Source of the DNA: an uncultured Acidobacteriota bacterium | GTDB taxonomy: Bacteria; Acidobacteriota; Terriglobia; Terriglobales; Acidobacteriaceae | Direction of reading: 5' to 3' | Assembly: GCA_963764145.1 (NCBI GenBank) | Contig: CAVXRC010000005.1 | Span: 1,660,413 to 1,692,412, forward strand | Length of the DNA stretch: 32,000 nucleotides | Part shown: positions 3,763 through 11,189 of the stretch, in pieces | Position numbering within the stretch: the first letter of the stretch is position 1 | How the letters are laid out: every line of letters begins with the position of its first letter | Translations under genes and position numbers: made by a program | Notes under the pieces: generated by a model | The model's input: only the letters and a program-made list of their open reading frames with translations | Database searches by the model: none | What the model was told of the DNA's origin: nothing

Positions 3763-3902
3763 TCGCCCTCTGATTCATCGCCTGCGCGGGCGTCTTACCT
3801 GAGTCTGTCCGCCAATTGATTCGCGTTGCGGTCCGGGCTGCGTTTCTAACAGCGCAGGGAAAATCGAAACCATGCTACGATTTCGGCACCCCGGAGGCAA
3901 GG

Positions 3903-5255
3903 ATGAAGATAGACGCTCTGCGAAAACGATTGCGCGGAACCGTACTGCTGCCAGGATCGGACGACTACGAGTCGAGCCGGCACATCTGGAATGCCATGAT
4001 CGATCGCAAGCCGCGGGCGATTGCCTGCTGTAGCGGACCTGCTGATGTCCAGGCTGCCGTTGAATTTGCTGGCGAGGAAGGTATTTTCCCAGCCATTCGC
4101 GCGGGAGGCCACAATGCCGCCGGCCTGGCGATGATAGACGACGGACTGGTCATCGATGTGTCGCACATGAAGGGTATCTTCGTGGACTCAACGCAGAGAA
4201 CTGCGACAGCGCAGGCAGGACTTACGTGGGGTGAGTTCGACCGAGAGACACATTTGTACGGCATGGCCACAACCGGCGGGTTGATTTCGACCACGGGAAT
4301 CGCAGGCTTGACGCTGGGCGGCGGTGTCGGTTGGCTTATGGGAAGATGCGGACTGGTCTGTGACAACACGTTGAACTACGACGTGGTTCTGGCTAGCGGC
4401 GAGATGGCGAGAGCCAATGCGGTGGAGAATGCCGACCTGTTCTGGGCGCTGAAAGGCGGTGGCGGCAACTTCGGCGTAGTCACATCCATCACCTATCGCA
4501 CATATCCCATCAAGGAAGTCCTGGCTGGATTATTGCTTTACCCGCTCGGGGACGCGCGGGAAGTAATAAGGTTTTATCGCGACTTTACATCCGGAGCAAT
4601 TCCCGACGAACTAACCATGTATGCGGCGGCGTTATGCACACCGGATGGAACTCCCGTCGTGGCGCTGATTCCAGTGTGGTGCGGAGATTTGGAAGAAGGA
4701 GAGCGGGTATTAGGGACGGTGAGGGCATTTGGATCACCCGTTGCCGACTTGATTACGCGGATGCCGTATCCGGCGATGCAGCAGATGATCGATGGAGTAG
4801 CGCCGTTTGGCTTGCGAAGTTATTGGAAGAGCCAATTTCTTCGCGAACTGACCAACGAAGCGATTGACCAATTTGTGGAGTTTGCCGAAACGAGTGTATC
4901 GCCGCGATCGCTTGCGATCCTGGAGCACGCTCACGGCGCGGTGGCGCGCGTGCCGGCGGATGCGACTGCCTTTCCGACGCGGAGTTCGCCATACGACCTG
5001 GTGGTCATTGCCGCCTGGACAAGCGCAGAGGACGACGAGGCGAATATCGCCTGGACGCGCCGTTTCCATTCGTCCATGGAGCAATGGTCAACTCATCTTG
5101 TCTATGTCAATGCATTGGATCAGGACGATATCGACCGCATCCCCCAGGCTTACGGACCGAATTACCAACGGCTTTGTGAAGTCAAGGAAAAGTACGATCC
5201 TGAAAATCGCTTCAGGCGCAACCAGAACATTCGTCCGCGGGTGAACGCGCGTTGA
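3903..5255 (+). CDS. FAD-linked oxidase (FAD_binding_4 plus BBE domain)
   Basis: IRAGGHNAAGLAMIDDGLVIDVSHMKGI (FAD-binding PCMH type) and C-terminal YVNALDQDD...YGPNYQRLCEVKEKYDPENRFRRNQNIRP (BBE motif). The start is taken at ATG 3903, preceded by GGAGG. The track ORF begins at 3816. Confidence 0.85.
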   Translation: MKIDALRKRLRGTVLLPGSDDYESSRHIWNAMIDRKPRAIACCSGPADVQAAVEFAGEEGIFPAIRAGGHNAAGLAMIDDGLVIDVSHMKGIFVDSTQRTATAQAGLTWGEFDRETHLYGMATTGGLISTTGIAGLTLGGGVGWLMGRCGLVCDNTLNYDVVLASGEMARANAVENADLFWALKGGGGNFGVVTSITYRTYPIKEVLAGLLLYPLGDAREVIRFYRDFTSGAIPDELTMYAAALCTPDGTPVVALIPVWCGDLEEGERVLGTVRAFGSPVADLITRMPYPAMQQMIDGVAPFGLRSYWKSQFLRELTNEAIDQFVEFAETSVSPRSLAILEHAHGAVARVPADATAFPTRSSPYDLVVIAAWTSAEDDEANIAWTRRFHSSMEQWSTHLVYVNALDQDDIDRIPQAYGPNYQRLCEVKEKYDPENRFRRNQNIRPRVNAR

Positions 5256-5318: not shown

Positions 5319-6692
5319 TCAGGGACGGACCAGAAATATGTTGTTGCTCTTGAGCGTTCCTTTGGTTGTCGTTAAGCTGATGAATCCGCTCGTGGCACCA
5401 TCGGGCACTACGACTCGCATATAAGTGGGCGTCAACGCGGTAATCTGCGCCGCAACGCCGTTGAAGAAGACTTGACTAGACGGCGAGAAGTACTGCCCGA
5501 GGATGTCCACCGTCATGCCTACCCTTCCATAACTTGGTAGATAGGTGACGAACGGAGGCAAGCCAAGATCGAAGCGGAAGAGCACGCCGTTGTTGTAGCT
5601 GCCGCCGGAGACCGTAACTCCATAGAGGAAGCCGTTCGTGTGCTGAATCAATGTGCATTGCGGATCGCTGCCGGTGTACTGTTGAAAGTCGTGAAGAACC
5701 GTGAAATCGCCGGTCGTGCTGATGCGGAAGAGGACACCGCCGTCAAAGGCGCCTCCTTGTTCATTGGTGCCGTAGAGATAGCCATCCGACGCCTGGACTA
5801 ATCCCCCCAGCGGTCCCGCCCCGTCGGCGCCTCCCGTGAAATCGTGGAGTACTGTGACTTGATGCGCGGGGTTCATTCGGAAGACGACTCCAGCGTTGTG
5901 CGCTCCACCAGTGGCGGTCACGCCATATAAGTTGCCATCGTTCGCCTGGATCAGTGCGGCATAAGGACCCGTGCCATGCGTTCCGTCAAAGTTGAACAGC
6001 GATTCAAACTTACCGCTGGAATTAATCCTGAAGATCGTACCGGCGCCGTGAGTGCCGCCCGCCGCAGTGGTTCCGTAGAACCAATAGTTAGTGGCCTGCA
6101 CCAGCGGCCCCCACAGGAGATCTCCATCCGGGCCGGAAAAGGCATGAAGGACGGTGAAAGTTCCGTCCTCGGCGATCTTGTAGACAGTTCCCTGGACCCC
6201 GGGAGCCCCCTCAATACCGGGTTCAACGAATGTCGTTCCATAGAGATCGCCGTACAGGCTCTGGATCGGCGGAGCCGTGGGAGACCCGCCGTCAGCGCCG
6301 CCAGCAAAATCATGGAGAGTCTTGACGATTCCATCCGGAGTCATTTCGAAGATGGTTCCCAAACCCTGGCTGCCGCCCGTCTCGGTAGTCCCATAGAACC
6401 GCCCATTTCTGCCCAGCGTCAGACCTCCGGAGGGTGTAGCACCATCCGTGGTGTCAAATTCGTGAAGGACCGTCAATGCGCCGCTGGTTGTGACCCGGAA
6501 GGCCACTCCGGGATCGTTCCCGAAGTCGTCGGCGGTAGTGAGCAGATAGCCCCCGCGGCTCTGCGCAATGATGCCCGATTCGGGCACCGAGGGCACGCCG
6601 TTGAAGTTGACCAGAACCTTATAGCTCTGGGCATGCAGGGTTGCGGCGATAGCCCAGAAAGGAGCGAGGCTGGTAAGACGACTCATTTTCAT
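5319..6692 (-). CDS. Secreted GloVer (choice-of-anchor) tandem-repeat protein with a C-terminal IPT/TIG-like domain
   Basis: About 8 repeats of the ~45-aa unit GG..G.GT(I/V)F(R/K)...G..T(V)LH.F. Signal peptide MKMSRLTSLAPFWAIAATLHAQ from ATG 6692, with GGAG 7 nt upstream. The C-terminal beta domain reads GMTVDILGQYFSPSSQVFFNGVAAQI...VVVPDGATSGFISL. Confidence 0.8.
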   Translation of the reverse strand: MKMSRLTSLAPFWAIAATLHAQSYKVLVNFNGVPSVPESGIIAQSRGGYLLTTADDFGNDPGVAFRVTTSGALTVLHEFDTTDGATPSGGLTLGRNGRFYGTTETGGSQGLGTIFEMTPDGIVKTLHDFAGGADGGSPTAPPIQSLYGDLYGTTFVEPGIEGAPGVQGTVYKIAEDGTFTVLHAFSGPDGDLLWGPLVQATNYWFYGTTAAGGTHGAGTIFRINSSGKFESLFNFDGTHGTGPYAALIQANDGNLYGVTATGGAHNAGVVFRMNPAHQVTVLHDFTGGADGAGPLGGLVQASDGYLYGTNEQGGAFDGGVLFRISTTGDFTVLHDFQQYTGSDPQCTLIQHTNGFLYGVTVSGGSYNNGVLFRFDLGLPPFVTYLPSYGRVGMTVDILGQYFSPSSQVFFNGVAAQITALTPTYMRVVVPDGATSGFISLTTTKGTLKSNNIFLVRP

Positions 6693-7131
6693 GGCATGAC
6701 TCCAAAAAGCCGAATGCGCCATTGGTGACCCGGTGCCTGGAATGGAACTGTGAGCGGGGAGGCGGGATGAGCTCTGGGATTTGTGCATGGCGCGGGATGA
6801 CCTGCAGCTATCCTTAGGGACATTTGCGGCGCGATTTTAGCACGCCTCTGGTCTCACTTGCCATCACCGCTATTACCGACCGCCCCAAGTTTAATTGGCA
6901 GAAGCACGTGCTCACGGTGCCGCGGCCAGTGAAACATTCAAAGCCCATGCTACTGAAGGACGAGAATGGTTGGGGCCACCAGGTGATCACGTTTTGTGTC
7001 CATGCACCATCGTTTGTGGCATAATGTGCAGGCTTACTACTCCACGGCTTCACTTGCCCTCCATCTGTCTGGGTTGGATGAAATGGGGCTGGGCCGCCTA
7101 ATTGGCCTGTCTGTTCCGAGTTAGAGGTCCA

Positions 7132-7728
7132 ATGAGCAACATCAACGGTAAGGTCTACGCGATGAATGCCATCACTCCCATGAAGCCATGGAAGACGTGG
7201 ATTCTCCGTGGATTTTTCTTTTTGCTGGGGCATATCAAGCCTCTGCAGAAAGACCTGGTCGACCTATCCTTTATTGAATTCGCACGATGGGTGGTTTTGC
7301 CGCGCAAAGGATTTCCTTATCTGCGCAACGGGCAGGTGCGGGAAGAGCTCAAATACGATTACCTTCTGTTCTTCAGTAACTTCAATGGCACATGGAACCA
7401 GTACATTGATGCCTTTTCGGCGGTTCTGAGTAAAGGCCTGAATCTTGTGTGGCGCTGGAGCGAGAAGTTTCCCGGTTCGGTTCCCGTAACTTCCTTCAAG
7501 GAATACATCGCCCGGGTCCAGTTCGATACGGACTACTACTACACCGCGTATCCCCACGCCACGGCGAATGACATCAAGTCAGCGCACATCGTGCAGTCCT
7601 CGCTGGATCAGCTCGGAGGGCTGGCTGAACAGTGCAGTCCGCAGCAGTTTTCCGATGCCTATCTTCGCTTCGTTCTGCAAGTGCAGTCCCATCTTGGCGA
7701 AACAGGCGAGGCTCCAATCGCCGGATAG
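7132..7728 (+). CDS. Uncharacterised protein, DyP-operon paralog A
   Basis: Intact ORF. ATG 7132 is preceded by AGAGG. It shares collinear motifs with the next gene: (K/S)VY(A/G)(M/L).(A/I)(I/L)(T/S)P, (F/L)ARxVV, YL(L/V)F.SN..G....Y. I recognise no family. Confidence 0.7.
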   Translation: MSNINGKVYAMNAITPMKPWKTWILRGFFFLLGHIKPLQKDLVDLSFIEFARWVVLPRKGFPYLRNGQVREELKYDYLLFFSNFNGTWNQYIDAFSAVLSKGLNLVWRWSEKFPGSVPVTSFKEYIARVQFDTDYYYTAYPHATANDIKSAHIVQSSLDQLGGLAEQCSPQQFSDAYLRFVLQVQSHLGETGEAPIAG

Positions 7729-7738
7729 AAAGACTTCC

Positions 7739-8371
7739 GTGGCCAATAAAAGCGGCAGTGTCTATGGACTTACAATCCTCTCGCCCATCATCGAAGATGA
7801 GAAGGCGACACCCTCTCACGACCTGCAGATCCGGGACTACCTGGCCAAACTATCTACCCGGGAAGACAGTCCGTTCGCGCAAGCTCCGGGCACGCATCTC
7901 GCCCGGCTGGTGGTCATGGACGATGTGATCTATGTCGGCATGCCGGCTTGTGAAGAACATCTCAAGTCGAAGTATCTTGTCTTCGAGTCGAATTGTGACG
8001 GCGATCTCGATGGCTATCTCCACGGCCTTGCGGATACGGTAGGCGATCATTTCGACGCCATTTGGACGCACTGTGTGGGATACCCGGGCGCAGCCAACCG
8101 GCGGGCATTCATTGACTATATGAAGGCGTGCCAACTGGAGACGACCTTCTACTTCGCAGCCGTCAACGACAAATCCGTCTCTGAGACATTGCGTGCGCTG
8201 CAGACCCAGGCCGCCGTTGCCGACTTCATCGCAACCCACCAGGGCGCGGATGCGACTACCCTGCAACGGGAATTCATCGAGTTCATGGCTCTGCTCAAAT
8301 CCCAGCCTGCTCCCCGGCCGGGTTCCATGGGCCCTCATCGCTATATCAAGACTGGCGGTCGAAATGAGTAA
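7739..8371 (+). CDS. Uncharacterised protein, DyP-operon paralog B
   Basis: In-frame GTG at 7739, 10 nt after the stop of paralog A. No in-frame ATG lies upstream of the conserved N-terminus ANKSGSVYGLTILSPI. The stop TAA 8369-8371 overlaps the DyP ATG 8364 (ATGAGTAA). Confidence 0.6.
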   Translation: MANKSGSVYGLTILSPIIEDEKATPSHDLQIRDYLAKLSTREDSPFAQAPGTHLARLVVMDDVIYVGMPACEEHLKSKYLVFESNCDGDLDGYLHGLADTVGDHFDAIWTHCVGYPGAANRRAFIDYMKACQLETTFYFAAVNDKSVSETLRALQTQAAVADFIATHQGADATTLQREFIEFMALLKSQPAPRPGSMGPHRYIKTGGRNE

Positions 8372-9749
8372 GCTCAACGAGACCGATATTCAGGGGTTTG
8401 TTCTGCGTGGCTACAACCTTCCATTCGCACGCTATCTGTTCCTGCATTTTGAAGATGCTAATCGAACGCGGAGCCTGATCGCGCGCCTGCTTAGCCAGAT
8501 AACCACCGGCCAGCGCTGGGACGGAGCCAAGCCGGAGAGCACGCTGAACATCGCATTTACTCACCGCGGCCTGCGGCATCTGGAACTGCCGGACGCAACA
8601 CTACTGACCTTTCCCGTCGAGTTTCAGCAGGGCATGAAGCATCGCGCCGAGATTCTCGGCGACTCGGGCGCGAATTCTCCCGAGCATTGGGATGAAGTCT
8701 GGCGCGAGGAACGCGTAGACGCCTGGCTGGGCATCAACGGCCTGACTGGAGAGGCTGTGGACGCCCGCTGTTCGGCTATCACCGCGATGATCGAGGCGAC
8801 GGGTGGAGCATTGGTGCTGGGCTCCCAGGATGCCGCGGCGGAAGTGTTCCAAGGCAAGGCGACGACCAGGGAACACTTCGGCTATACCGATGGCTTCGGC
8901 AATCCGGACTACCTTGGGGTCGATCGCAGCTCGCAGCCCGGCCAGGGAAAGCTTTTGCCGGATGGAAGCTGGGCGCCGCTGGCAACCGGAGAACTGCTGC
9001 TGGGCTATGCGGACGAGGCGGGCGAATTGCCGGTTGCCCCGGTGCCGCACCTTCTCGCCAGCAATGGCACCTTCATGGTGTATCGCAAGCTGCACCAGAA
9101 TCTGGCCACGTTTCGCGACTTTCTCGAGCAACAGGCCGCGAACTATGGCGGCGGCAAAGAAAAACTTGCCGCCAAATTTGTTGGCCGCTGGCGAGACGGC
9201 ACACCGATCGAACTCTCCCCCGACAGTCCCAATGCCGCCATTGCTCAGGACCCCAGCCGGAGCACCAACTTTACTTTCGGCCGGGATGCGGAAGGCACAC
9301 GGTGCCCCATGGGAGCGCACATCCGTCGCGTTCATCCACGCGATGCTTTCGGCTTCAACGGCCGGCTCATCAACCGTCGCCGCATCACCCGCCGAGGCCT
9401 GCCGTACGGACGCTTTGCGCCTGAAGGCACACCTGTCTCCGACACTGAGGAGCGAGGAGTCATCTTCATGGCGTTGAATGCCAGCCTGGCGCGCCAGTTT
9501 GAATTCGTACAGCAGCAATGGATTCAATATGGCAACGACGCCCGCCTGGGCAATGACAAGGACCTGCTGTTAGGCAATCACGGAGGCAGGGGAAGGTTTG
9601 TCGTGCAAGGCGATACGAGCCAGACGAATCCTCCGTTCGTTTGCAGCAATCTGCCGGATTTCGTAGAACTCCGCGGCGGCGATTATTTCTTTCTTCCCAG
9701 TATCACAGCGCTGGGAATGATCGCGATGGGGTTAGTCGATCCGCGCTGA
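8364..9749 (+). CDS. DyP-type (dye-decolourising) heme peroxidase
   Basis: N-terminal DIQGFVLRGY...FLHF. GXXDG region HFGYTDGFGNP (distal Asp). Proximal-His region CPMGAHIRRVHPRD. RRITRRGLPYG (distal Arg). GVIFMALNASLARQFEFVQQQW. The start is taken at ATG 8364; the track ORF extends upstream to 8193. Confidence 0.9.
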   Translation: MSKLNETDIQGFVLRGYNLPFARYLFLHFEDANRTRSLIARLLSQITTGQRWDGAKPESTLNIAFTHRGLRHLELPDATLLTFPVEFQQGMKHRAEILGDSGANSPEHWDEVWREERVDAWLGINGLTGEAVDARCSAITAMIEATGGALVLGSQDAAAEVFQGKATTREHFGYTDGFGNPDYLGVDRSSQPGQGKLLPDGSWAPLATGELLLGYADEAGELPVAPVPHLLASNGTFMVYRKLHQNLATFRDFLEQQAANYGGGKEKLAAKFVGRWRDGTPIELSPDSPNAAIAQDPSRSTNFTFGRDAEGTRCPMGAHIRRVHPRDAFGFNGRLINRRRITRRGLPYGRFAPEGTPVSDTEERGVIFMALNASLARQFEFVQQQWIQYGNDARLGNDKDLLLGNHGGRGRFVVQGDTSQTNPPFVCSNLPDFVELRGGDYFFLPSITALGMIAMGLVDPR

Positions 9750-9795
9750 ACTCAGGCTGCCGCACCGTCATCGTCAAATGGACGCTGGCGATGAA

Positions 9796-10001: not shown

Positions 10002-11189
10002 GTGCCCAATCTGAAGGCCGTCTTGCTCTGGTACTGCCGCACTCCGCGCGGCTGGCGCCGGTTCCCCGTTTTGCTTGGTCGGAACAATAGAATTCGCCAC
10101 ACGTTTGTGACTGATCAGGGGAAGGAAATATCCTACCCGGAAGGTCGCTATCAGATTCTCGTCTACGAGGGCAGTCGTCCTGTCTACAAGAACGCGGGTG
10201 ATAACGCGGCGGACGCCCTGGCGGCTCGCGATAGGGAAACTCATTTGTTGGCGGCTAAGCTTTCAGCCGACAATGCTGGCGCCAAGATCGTCGAAGAAGA
10301 AAAGAGAACATATCTACGCCGAGCTGCCGGGCTCTACGTGCAAGACGCCGAGAATCGGAACGCCAAAGAAGCGGCAGAGCAGGCCGAGCAGGTTACTAAC
10401 GAGTTCTTGGACGTCTGCCGGAAGACGTTCGTTGACGAGGTCACCCGCGAGGACGTTTTCCGATTCCACAAGGCGTTGCGTGAGCGTGATTGCTCAGATC
10501 GGACGGTCGCCAACAAGCATGCTCGACTAAAAAGCTTCCTTCGATTCGCCGGCGTCGATCTCGCCATCGTTCCTCCAAAGCCAAAGTATGAAGAGGCGTT
10601 GCCGACGATCTACACAACGGAAGAGATACGGGGAATCCTCCAGGCAGCCGATCCCTACATGCGGATCGTGATCGAGATGGGTCTGAAGCTGGGGCTTCGC
10701 GAACAGGAATTGATGTATGCGGAGTGGACGGACTTGGACTGGGAAGAATCAGCGTTCAGAGTTCAAGGAAAGAAGTTTTGGGATTTTCGCGTGAAGGATT
10801 CTGAGCAGCGAGAGATTCCATGCGCATCGGACCTGCTGAAGGCGTTGAAGGCATGGAAGAAGAAGCATCCGAACTCCCGCCTGATCGTCGGGACCACCAG
10901 CGACAGCCCGAATACTCATCTGTTGCGTTCCCTCAAGCGATTGGCCAAACGCGCAAATCTGAACTGCGGGAAATGTGACGGATGCAACTCGAAGCTGAAT
11001 GAATGCCAAGGTTGGACCCTGCATAAGTTGCGGCGAACGTACTGCACAACCCTATTGCGCAACGGAATCGATCTGAAGACGGTCCAACACTACATGGGTC
11101 ATGCTGACTTGGCTTCTACGATGCGCTACCTGCGTCCGGCGGTCGGAAAGGAATCCCAACAGCGCATCAACGCCATTCAATGGATCTAA
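10002..11189 (+). CDS. int: Tyrosine recombinase / phage-type integrase
   Basis: GTG start after GGAGGGGA. The catalytic pattern is GLREQEL (Arg), HKLRRTYCT (H-x-x-R), MGHADLASTMRYL (His and Tyr nucleophile). An N-terminal SAM-like core-binding region is present (EDVFRFHKAL...NKHARLKSFLRFA). Confidence 0.9.
   Translation: MPNLKAVLLWYCRTPRGWRRFPVLLGRNNRIRHTFVTDQGKEISYPEGRYQILVYEGSRPVYKNAGDNAADALAARDRETHLLAAKLSADNAGAKIVEEEKRTYLRRAAGLYVQDAENRNAKEAAEQAEQVTNEFLDVCRKTFVDEVTREDVFRFHKALRERDCSDRTVANKHARLKSFLRFAGVDLAIVPPKPKYEEALPTIYTTEEIRGILQAADPYMRIVIEMGLKLGLREQELMYAEWTDLDWEESAFRVQGKKFWDFRVKDSEQREIPCASDLLKALKAWKKKHPNSRLIVGTTSDSPNTHLLRSLKRLAKRANLNCGKCDGCNSKLNECQGWTLHKLRRTYCTTLLRNGIDLKTVQHYMGHADLASTMRYLRPAVGKESQQRINAIQWI

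Follow-up and report, generated by a model that had tools for sequence, protein, structure and literature searches.

Two paralogous proteins of an unnamed family accompany a class V DyP-type peroxidase in a three-gene cassette of an uncultured acidobacterium

The physiological substrates and roles of bacterial DyP-type heme peroxidases, above all those of class C/V, are an open question in the field. In the partner contexts described to date, namely encapsulin-DyP cargo loading, EfeUOB iron uptake, and Sco/ECuC/DtpA copper trafficking, the DyP gene shares its operon with genes for dedicated partners that are not peroxidases and that determine what the enzyme does in the cell (PMC9719856). Here, we analyzed a locus of this general kind in a 32,000-nucleotide (nt) stretch of DNA (hereafter the window; GenBank assembly GCA_963764145.1, contig CAVXRC010000005.1, positions 1,660,413 to 1,692,412) from an uncultured bacterium of the Acidobacteriaceae (Acidobacteriota), where a DyP gene directly follows two genes, A and B, that encode paralogous proteins. 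None of the three described contexts applies to this locus; its partner proteins instead belong to an unnamed family of predicted ferredoxin-like barrels, which is found next to DyP genes in nearly every genome where we detected it and is sometimes fused to the enzyme.

The closest solved relative of the encoded peroxidase is DrDyP of Deinococcus radiodurans (DR_A0145; PDB 8RE2/8RE3). DrDyP is reported to be inactive at pH 7.5, with a six-coordinate low-spin heme, and its authors ask what activates the enzyme; it takes up heme when expressed without its neighbor (PMC10820274). The DyP in the Deinococcus record of PLSDB is this crystallized enzyme (1022 bits, full length), and only 1 nt upstream of its gene lies a gene for a hypothetical protein of 243 amino acids (aa) that belongs to the same partner family as A and B (hhalign 99.9%, E = 7e-36). 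This gene is mentioned neither in the DrDyP paper (PMC10820274) nor in a review of Deinococcus (PMC6300522). Whereas Deinococcus has one partner gene and adds a catalase-like protein (DR_A0146, reported to be without catalase activity; PMC6300522), a 3-hydroxyacyl-CoA dehydrogenase, and a TetR regulator, the cassette studied here has an A/B pair and none of these additions. An architecture identical to it (198 aa, 210 aa, and DyP) is present in the cultured type strain Granulicella tundricola MP5ACTX9 (WP_013572739/40/41), where the three genes are co-directional and overlapping and lie on plasmid pACIX901; the first two have no annotation beyond hypothetical protein.

All three genes of the cassette are on the forward strand. 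Gene A (7132-7728; ATG at 7132, TAG at 7726-7728) encodes a 198-aa A-type partner protein and is preceded by a GAGG Shine-Dalgarno sequence 4 nt before its start. A spacer of 10 nt (7729-7738) separates its stop from the start of gene B (7739-8371; GTG at 7739, TAA at 8369-8371), which encodes the 210-aa B-type paralog, and the start of the DyP gene (8364-9749; ATG at 8364, TGA at 9747-9749; 461 aa) is located inside the last codons of B, forming an 8-nt overlap (ATGAGTAA, 8364-8371). The chosen starts of A and B were accepted because their homologs share these lengths, almost all A homologs being 198 aa (n = 1492) and nearly all B homologs 210 aa (n = 1561). The B/DyP overlap would couple the translation of the two genes, and an overlap of similar kind, 4 to 5 nt by match coordinates, is found in most close relatives. 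Judging from this tight coupling, A, B, and DyP probably form one transcription unit. The cassette occurs in a single copy in the source genome.

The product of the third gene is, by its sequence, a class V (C/D, long form; also called C-type) DyP heme peroxidase. It matches PF21105 (DyP_N; 49.8 bits against a cut-off of 27.5) and PF20628 (Dyp_perox_C; 23.8 bits against 20), and reaches 100.4 bits with TIGR01413, just under the cut-off of 100.5. Its catalytic motifs align with those of DrDyP and comprise GYTDG (residues 173-177) with the distal Asp, GAHIRR with the proximal His (H319), and RRG with the Arg (R343/R344); 20 clade members that were compared all share D176, H319, R321/R322, and R343/R344. 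The nearest structure in the PDB is DrDyP 8RE3 (class C/V, E = 2.5e-67), followed by an ancestral D-type DyP, fungal DyPs, and DyP2, in agreement with an earlier note, made from the sequence alone, that had called the protein a long, class D/V-like DyP. No signal peptide was found, and the N terminus begins directly at the conserved DIQG region. The enzyme does not resemble the Tat-exported class I DyPs of the EfeB type, since it has no Tat signal, scores 19 bits against a cut-off of 428 with TIGR01412, and has unrelated neighbors. Likewise, no shell gene adjoins it that would mark it as encapsulin cargo, and no encapsulin, EfeU/EfeO, or copper-chaperone gene was found among the flanking genes, which defined the scope of the encapsulin search.

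A and B are paralogs (BLASTP E = 4e-13, 23% identity over 182 aligned residues, collinear), and searches with the two proteins gave no match to the models of Pfam, NCBIfam, or PADLOC (for Pfam and NCBIfam, none at E ≤ 1) or to the sequences of the PDB. The earlier note had described two paralogous open reading frames of about 200 aa, 10 nt apart and with the second overlapping the DyP start by 8 nt, that belonged to no recognizable family and had no encapsulin or EfeUO partner nearby; all of this was borne out, the flanks holding an FAD/BBE oxidase, a TIG-domain repeat protein, and a tyrosine integrase instead. None of the A homologs is named, and full-text literature searches found no description of the family. 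On these sequence comparisons, the A/B partner family is a new one, absent from Pfam and NCBIfam, unnamed, and defined here. When 1.84 billion cluster representatives (50% identity clusters) were searched with a family profile, 3,242 clusters matched at E ≤ 1e-3, of which 1,758 also passed E ≤ 1e-10; two family domains within 360-460 aa are seen in many of them.

The motifs of the family are present in A as well as in B; they are an IHFARW-type strand, an LLFxSNxDGxWxxYxxxF strand-helix, a GYPG loop, and a QxxT...Y.AYP strand. In gene A the first of these reads IEFARW, with Glu in place of His as in its closest orthologs, and B keeps the His in its THLAR motif. Across the 17-sequence family alignment, R52 (in the FARW strand) and G115 are invariant, and N83 (in SNxDG) and Y91 are invariant among A and B orthologs. 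Over 67 loci, A has a median identity of 78.6%, compared with 72.9% for B and 76.4% for the enzyme, so that A is as conserved as the DyP it accompanies.

Two apparent likenesses of the family to known proteins were rejected. Profile positions 73-101 (LLFxSNxDGxWxxY) matched residues 48-76 of an oligogalacturonate lyase (3PE7; E = 0.0014 over 29 residues, with PF14583 also weak), which was judged a chance match, as 3PE7 is a beta-propeller protein and a single strand-turn motif was covered; sequence searches of the PDB with A, B, and the family profile yielded no other match. The idea that A and B are split DyP half-domains, with HFARW corresponding to HIRRV and LLFxSN to IFMALN, was abandoned because hhalign of the partner profile against the DyP profile gave a probability of 0.4%, and no DyP was among the top Foldseek matches of the A model or the A-B fusion model described below.

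Some members of the family are predicted to have transmembrane segments (15 of the 150 best representatives, at varying insertion positions). One or two such helices are predicted in L021:7797-9254(-), L023:6114-7424(+), P0401, P0414, P0408, and P0434; the insertion point is variously the first helix, the junction of the two domains, or a site ahead of the last strand, and membrane attachment seems to have arisen repeatedly in the partner family. Transmembrane anchoring of the source genome's A was considered and rejected, as it has no predicted segment and its best 19-residue hydropathy is 0.82 (1.09 for B). A does have an unusually hydrophobic first helix (WKTWILRGFFFLLGHI), through which a peripheral membrane contact is at most conceivable.

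Linkage of the partner family to DyP was near-obligate in the genomes sampled. A scan of one genome per species for relatives of A gave 549 confirmed matches, from which 80 loci were kept; all are from Acidobacteriota save one contig binned as Rhodanobacter, and all are from metagenome-assembled genomes save Granulicella aggregans M8UP14. The order A-B-DyP on the same strand was found in 79 of these 80 loci, and the 80th ends inside B at the end of its contig. A profile built from 17 diverse family members was also run against 401 genomes spread over the Acidobacteriota, which gave counts that are descriptive and not a statistical test, because the genomes are related to one another. The partner family was present in 19 of the 401 genomes and a DyP of the same type in 22, with all 19 inside the 22. 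The partner loci number 22, and in 20 of them the partner is directly next to DyP. In G279 the distance is 3.4 kb, and the remaining match (G087:C6:1617339-1617710, E = 6.8e-10), a possible solo copy, is the only one in this sample that is not near a DyP. The loci differ in architecture: some have A, B, and DyP as separate genes, in others one partner gene lies before or after DyP, and in others again a fused two-domain partner precedes it. The earlier note had allowed that homologs might prove to be unlinked to DyP genes in other genomes, or to fall into a well-characterized family with an unrelated function; instead, they are linked to DyP almost without exception, and A and B fall into no characterized family.

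The association extends well outside the phylum. A tblastn search of PLSDB with a single-type member of the family matched 64 plasmid or chromid records, including ones from Rhizobium, Brucella, Sphingomonas, Streptomyces, Rhodococcus, Nostoc, Acinetobacter, and Deinococcus. In seven of seven annotated regions (D. radiodurans, Acinetobacter lwoffii, Brucella anthropi, Rhodococcus koreensis, Nostoc, Streptomyces, and G. tundricola), a "hypothetical protein" adjoins a DyP or "peroxidase" gene, with one gene between them in the Streptomyces record, and DyP adjacency reaches five bacterial classes beyond that of the source. Several of these cassettes are extended: a "catalase family protein" is added in D. 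radiodurans, A. lwoffii (pALWED3.4), B. anthropi (pOANT02), and R. koreensis, a 3-hydroxyacyl-CoA dehydrogenase in the first three of these, two of which also have a TetR regulator, and an oleate hydratase in B. anthropi. Of the 80 related loci, 16 have a gene for a divergent cytochrome P450 (Pfam E = 3e-11) within ~10 nt after DyP (for example, L090:8639-9955, L107:8618-9955, L046, L039, and L082). The source genome has no detectable copy of the module P450 or of the catalase-like protein, and for this reason we regard its trio as the minimal core; the copy is an ordinary, intact member of the module in its minimal three-gene form.

Natural fusions, read from sequences and Pfam scans, join the same proteins in several arrangements. 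They comprise A-B fusions (P0244, P0249, P0250, P0254, and P0394-P0396), a B-DyP fusion of 665 aa (P0370), fusions of a two-domain partner with DyP (A-B-DyP, 860-964 aa; P0251, P0252, P0349, and P0372), and fusions of a catalase-like protein with the partner (P0354 and P0319). The domain order in the fusions is the gene order of the source cassette, and several fusions were found on two or three independent contigs; P0398, which looks like a frameshifted acidobacterial contig, was left out of the count. On a 1.4-Mb contig, the A-B fusion P0396 precedes DyP and a P450, after which comes a gene for a patatin-like protein of 895 aa (L107:9998-12685). By its annotation, this neighbor hints at phospholipid-derived substrates. 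In a context unrelated to DyP, a partner-family domain is located at the C terminus of an nSTAND1 NTPase (P0267; 719 aa, from a metagenome), which suggests that the domain can serve as a ligand sensor.

Structure prediction assigned the pair to a fold class. The AlphaFold2 model of A alone (pLDDT 76) shows a ferredoxin-like alpha+beta half-barrel with a beta-alpha-beta-beta-alpha arrangement plus helices. Its fold matches were weak (E ≥ 0.15), and the best of them were, with few exceptions, to dimeric alpha+beta barrel proteins. The A-B fusion P0244, modeled with an alignment that carried A orthologs on the first half and B orthologs on the second, gave a pLDDT of 85.9 and a pTM of 0.86, with two equivalent halves that each consist of beta-alpha-beta-beta-alpha-alpha-beta and two long C-terminal helices. 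In a Foldseek search of the PDB, nine entries matched this model at E ≤ 1e-3 (the lowest E being 1.5e-4, with probabilities of 0.94-1.0). They are structures of sulfur oxygenase reductase, the ABM/SchA-like protein WhiE-ORFI, and the Abx(+)O decarboxylase, whereas CT0912 (a ferredoxin-like-repeat protein), chlorite dismutase, and a tandem ABM monooxygenase matched more weakly. The beta-alpha-beta-beta-alpha-beta topology of dimeric alpha+beta barrels (ABM/Dabb type) is present in both the A-only and the fused models. Going by these models, the fold class of A-B is a tandem ferredoxin-like barrel without a close solved relative. ABM-type barrels (sulfur oxygenase reductase, WhiE-ORFI, Abx(+)O, the ActVA-Orf6 type, and Dabb) have two such modules per unit, as does the A-B model, and were its sole significant fold matches. 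In contrast to them, A and B show no sequence membership in the Pfam families ABM, Dabb, EthD, or the like and no sequence similarity to these barrels, each half has two extra C-terminal helices, and the unit consists of two diverged paralogs that are tied to a heme peroxidase.

We consider it reasonably probable that A and B form a heterodimeric barrel docked on a cytoplasmic class V DyP as its ligand-handling or activating subunit. In this proposal, the three genes would encode a multi-subunit cytoplasmic heme peroxidase, in which A and B, as ferredoxin-like modules with two additional C-terminal helices each, would pair into a pseudo-symmetric heterodimeric alpha+beta barrel, and the barrel would bind the DyP as a small-molecule-handling or activating subunit. 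The natural A-B fusions and the confident two-domain model support the heterodimer, and the B-DyP and A-B-DyP fusions support contact of the partner with the enzyme, all of which favors the heterodimeric accessory pair that the earlier note had put forward as speculative. The pocket of A:B would be lined by the conserved Arg (FARW), Asn (SNxDG), and Tyr and would probably hold a hydrophobic ligand, possibly with a carboxylate, for which an Arg/Asn/Tyr set inside a hydrophobic barrel would be suitable. A:B may then either present this ligand to the heme enzyme or switch the enzyme on. As to its nature, the P450, catalase-like protein, 3-hydroxyacyl-CoA dehydrogenase, oleate hydratase, and patatin encoded in cassettes elsewhere point to lipid or lipid-hydroperoxide chemistry, as far as gene annotations indicate.

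Several points weigh against this proposal: (i) the A-only model is mediocre, with a best fold match at E = 0.15, and the TM-scores of 0.26-0.38 (on the query) against solved structures give a fold class only and no function; (ii) the proposed pocket of Arg, Asn, and Tyr was placed solely by where the strands and helices lie; (iii) the lipid link comes from other genomes and is indirect here, as the source genome has no detectable module P450 or catalase-like protein and the neighbors of its cassette are not conserved with it; (iv) 4 of the 25 DyP loci in the phylum sample (G040, G231, and G285) have no detectable partner; and (v) fusion and adjacency also arise between consecutive enzymes of a pathway that form no stable complex.

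The most probable of the alternatives is one that we nevertheless regard as unlikely. Here, A:B would be an independent, cofactor-free enzyme of the ABM type (an oxygenase, cyclase, or decarboxylase) that acts on a hydrophobic metabolite before or after DyP in one pathway without forming a stable complex with it. The best fold matches (WhiE-ORFI, Abx(+)O, sulfur oxygenase reductase, and putative ABM monooxygenases) would fit such an enzyme, as would the polar, conserved R52, N83, and Y91 in an otherwise hydrophobic core and the further enzymes in the extended cassettes listed above, from the P450 to patatin. However, the partner is linked to DyP alone while the other neighbors vary, which is more typical of subunits than of pathway steps, DyP fusions occur in several arrangements, and the proteins have no sequence similarity to the ABM or Dabb families of Pfam.

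A variant that we find rather more doubtful combines the two ideas, in that A:B would itself be catalytic within the complex. It would work like an ABM oxygenase, needing no cofactor to join O2 to a substrate of lipid origin, and the bound DyP would immediately consume the organic hydroperoxide so formed. If true, A:B and DyP would together make up an oxygenase-peroxidase machine complete in itself, the bacterial equivalent of dioxygenase-peroxidase oxylipin synthases, and a catalytic A:B would reveal the long-sought physiological reaction of bacterial class V DyPs and explain the inertness of DrDyP alone at neutral pH.

It is improbable that A:B is a heme-handling protein, that is, a chaperone, store, or degrader similar to IsdG or to HemQ/chlorite dismutase that loads or regulates the heme of DyP. 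The fold superfamily does include heme binders (IsdG, HemQ, Cld, and DyP itself), chlorite dismutase was among the weaker fold matches, and many family members, B among them, have the His of the IHFARW/THLAR strand. However, this His is Glu in the source A and its closest orthologs, the hhalign comparison with the DyP profile was essentially negative (the 0.4% given above), no sequence match to heme-binding barrels was found in the PDB or Pfam, and DrDyP binds heme without its neighbor (PMC10820274). Least probable of all is that A:B mainly localizes DyP by tethering it to the cytoplasmic membrane or another structure without any chemistry, since the predicted transmembrane segments in some of the best representatives and in the fused proteins in L021, L023, P0401, and P0414, together with the hydrophobic first helix of A, are set against source A and B proteins that, like most of the family, have no predicted transmembrane segment, and against conserved polar residues inside the fold that favor ligand binding over a mere anchor.

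Upstream of A, a promoter-like element (6994-7025, forward strand) combines TTGTGT (6994-6999) with an extended -10-like sequence (TGGCATAAT, 7017-7025) at a hexamer spacing of 20 nt, and a GTTTGTGnCATAAT block is common to most of 12 aligned upstream regions. This element is a candidate promoter for the whole unit, as suggested by its sequence and position; a generic scan for sigma-70 promoters and terminators found nothing above shuffled controls and left the 6994-7025 element uncalled. The block with the extended -10-like motif (GTTTGTGGCATAAT), ~110 nt before the start of A, is kept in most close relatives despite otherwise unrelated flanks. DNA similarity to the five closest relatives extends from about 6980-6991 to 9745-9751 only, that is, over the three genes and ~150 nt upstream, ending at the DyP stop. 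Because the similarity is restricted to the cassette, the cassette moves, or is kept, as a unit.

None of the other genes in the window is conserved alongside the cassette in the 80 related loci. A tyrosine integrase gene (10002-11189) follows the cassette after a 250-nt AT-richer gap, and the cassette thus adjoins the left end of an integrated mobile element; we place it at the element's left edge because similarity stops at the DyP stop and the integrase follows. A role in anti-phage defense was considered in view of the mobile element nearby and was rejected, as there was no PADLOC match and the cassette ends at the DyP stop, before the integrase. An FAD-binding, BBE-like oxidase (3816-5255, forward strand), a possible H2O2 producer, is encoded 1.9 kb upstream of the cassette. 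As an H2O2 source for DyP it was also rejected, since it adjoins the cassette in 0 of the 80 related loci and is not part of the module. Between the two, on the reverse strand, lies a gene for a 489-aa repeat protein (5319-6788) with repeats of the GG-x-G-[TV]-[IV]-F type, a C-terminal TIG/IPT domain, and no further Pfam match, which is probably secreted and unrelated to the cassette.

DrDyP-like enzymes look inactive when studied alone (PMC10820274), and the partner family defined here accompanies most such DyPs in the sampled genomes and is sometimes fused to them. The partner is therefore a concrete missing component to add to DyP assays, and cultured sources of the genes are at hand in D. 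radiodurans, G. tundricola, G. aggregans, and B. anthropi ATCC 49188. Should substrate supply or gating prove to be the partner's role, the many studies that treat DyPs as stand-alone oxidizers of lignin or dyes would need reinterpretation, and the A/B pair offers a route to the cellular function of these enzymes.

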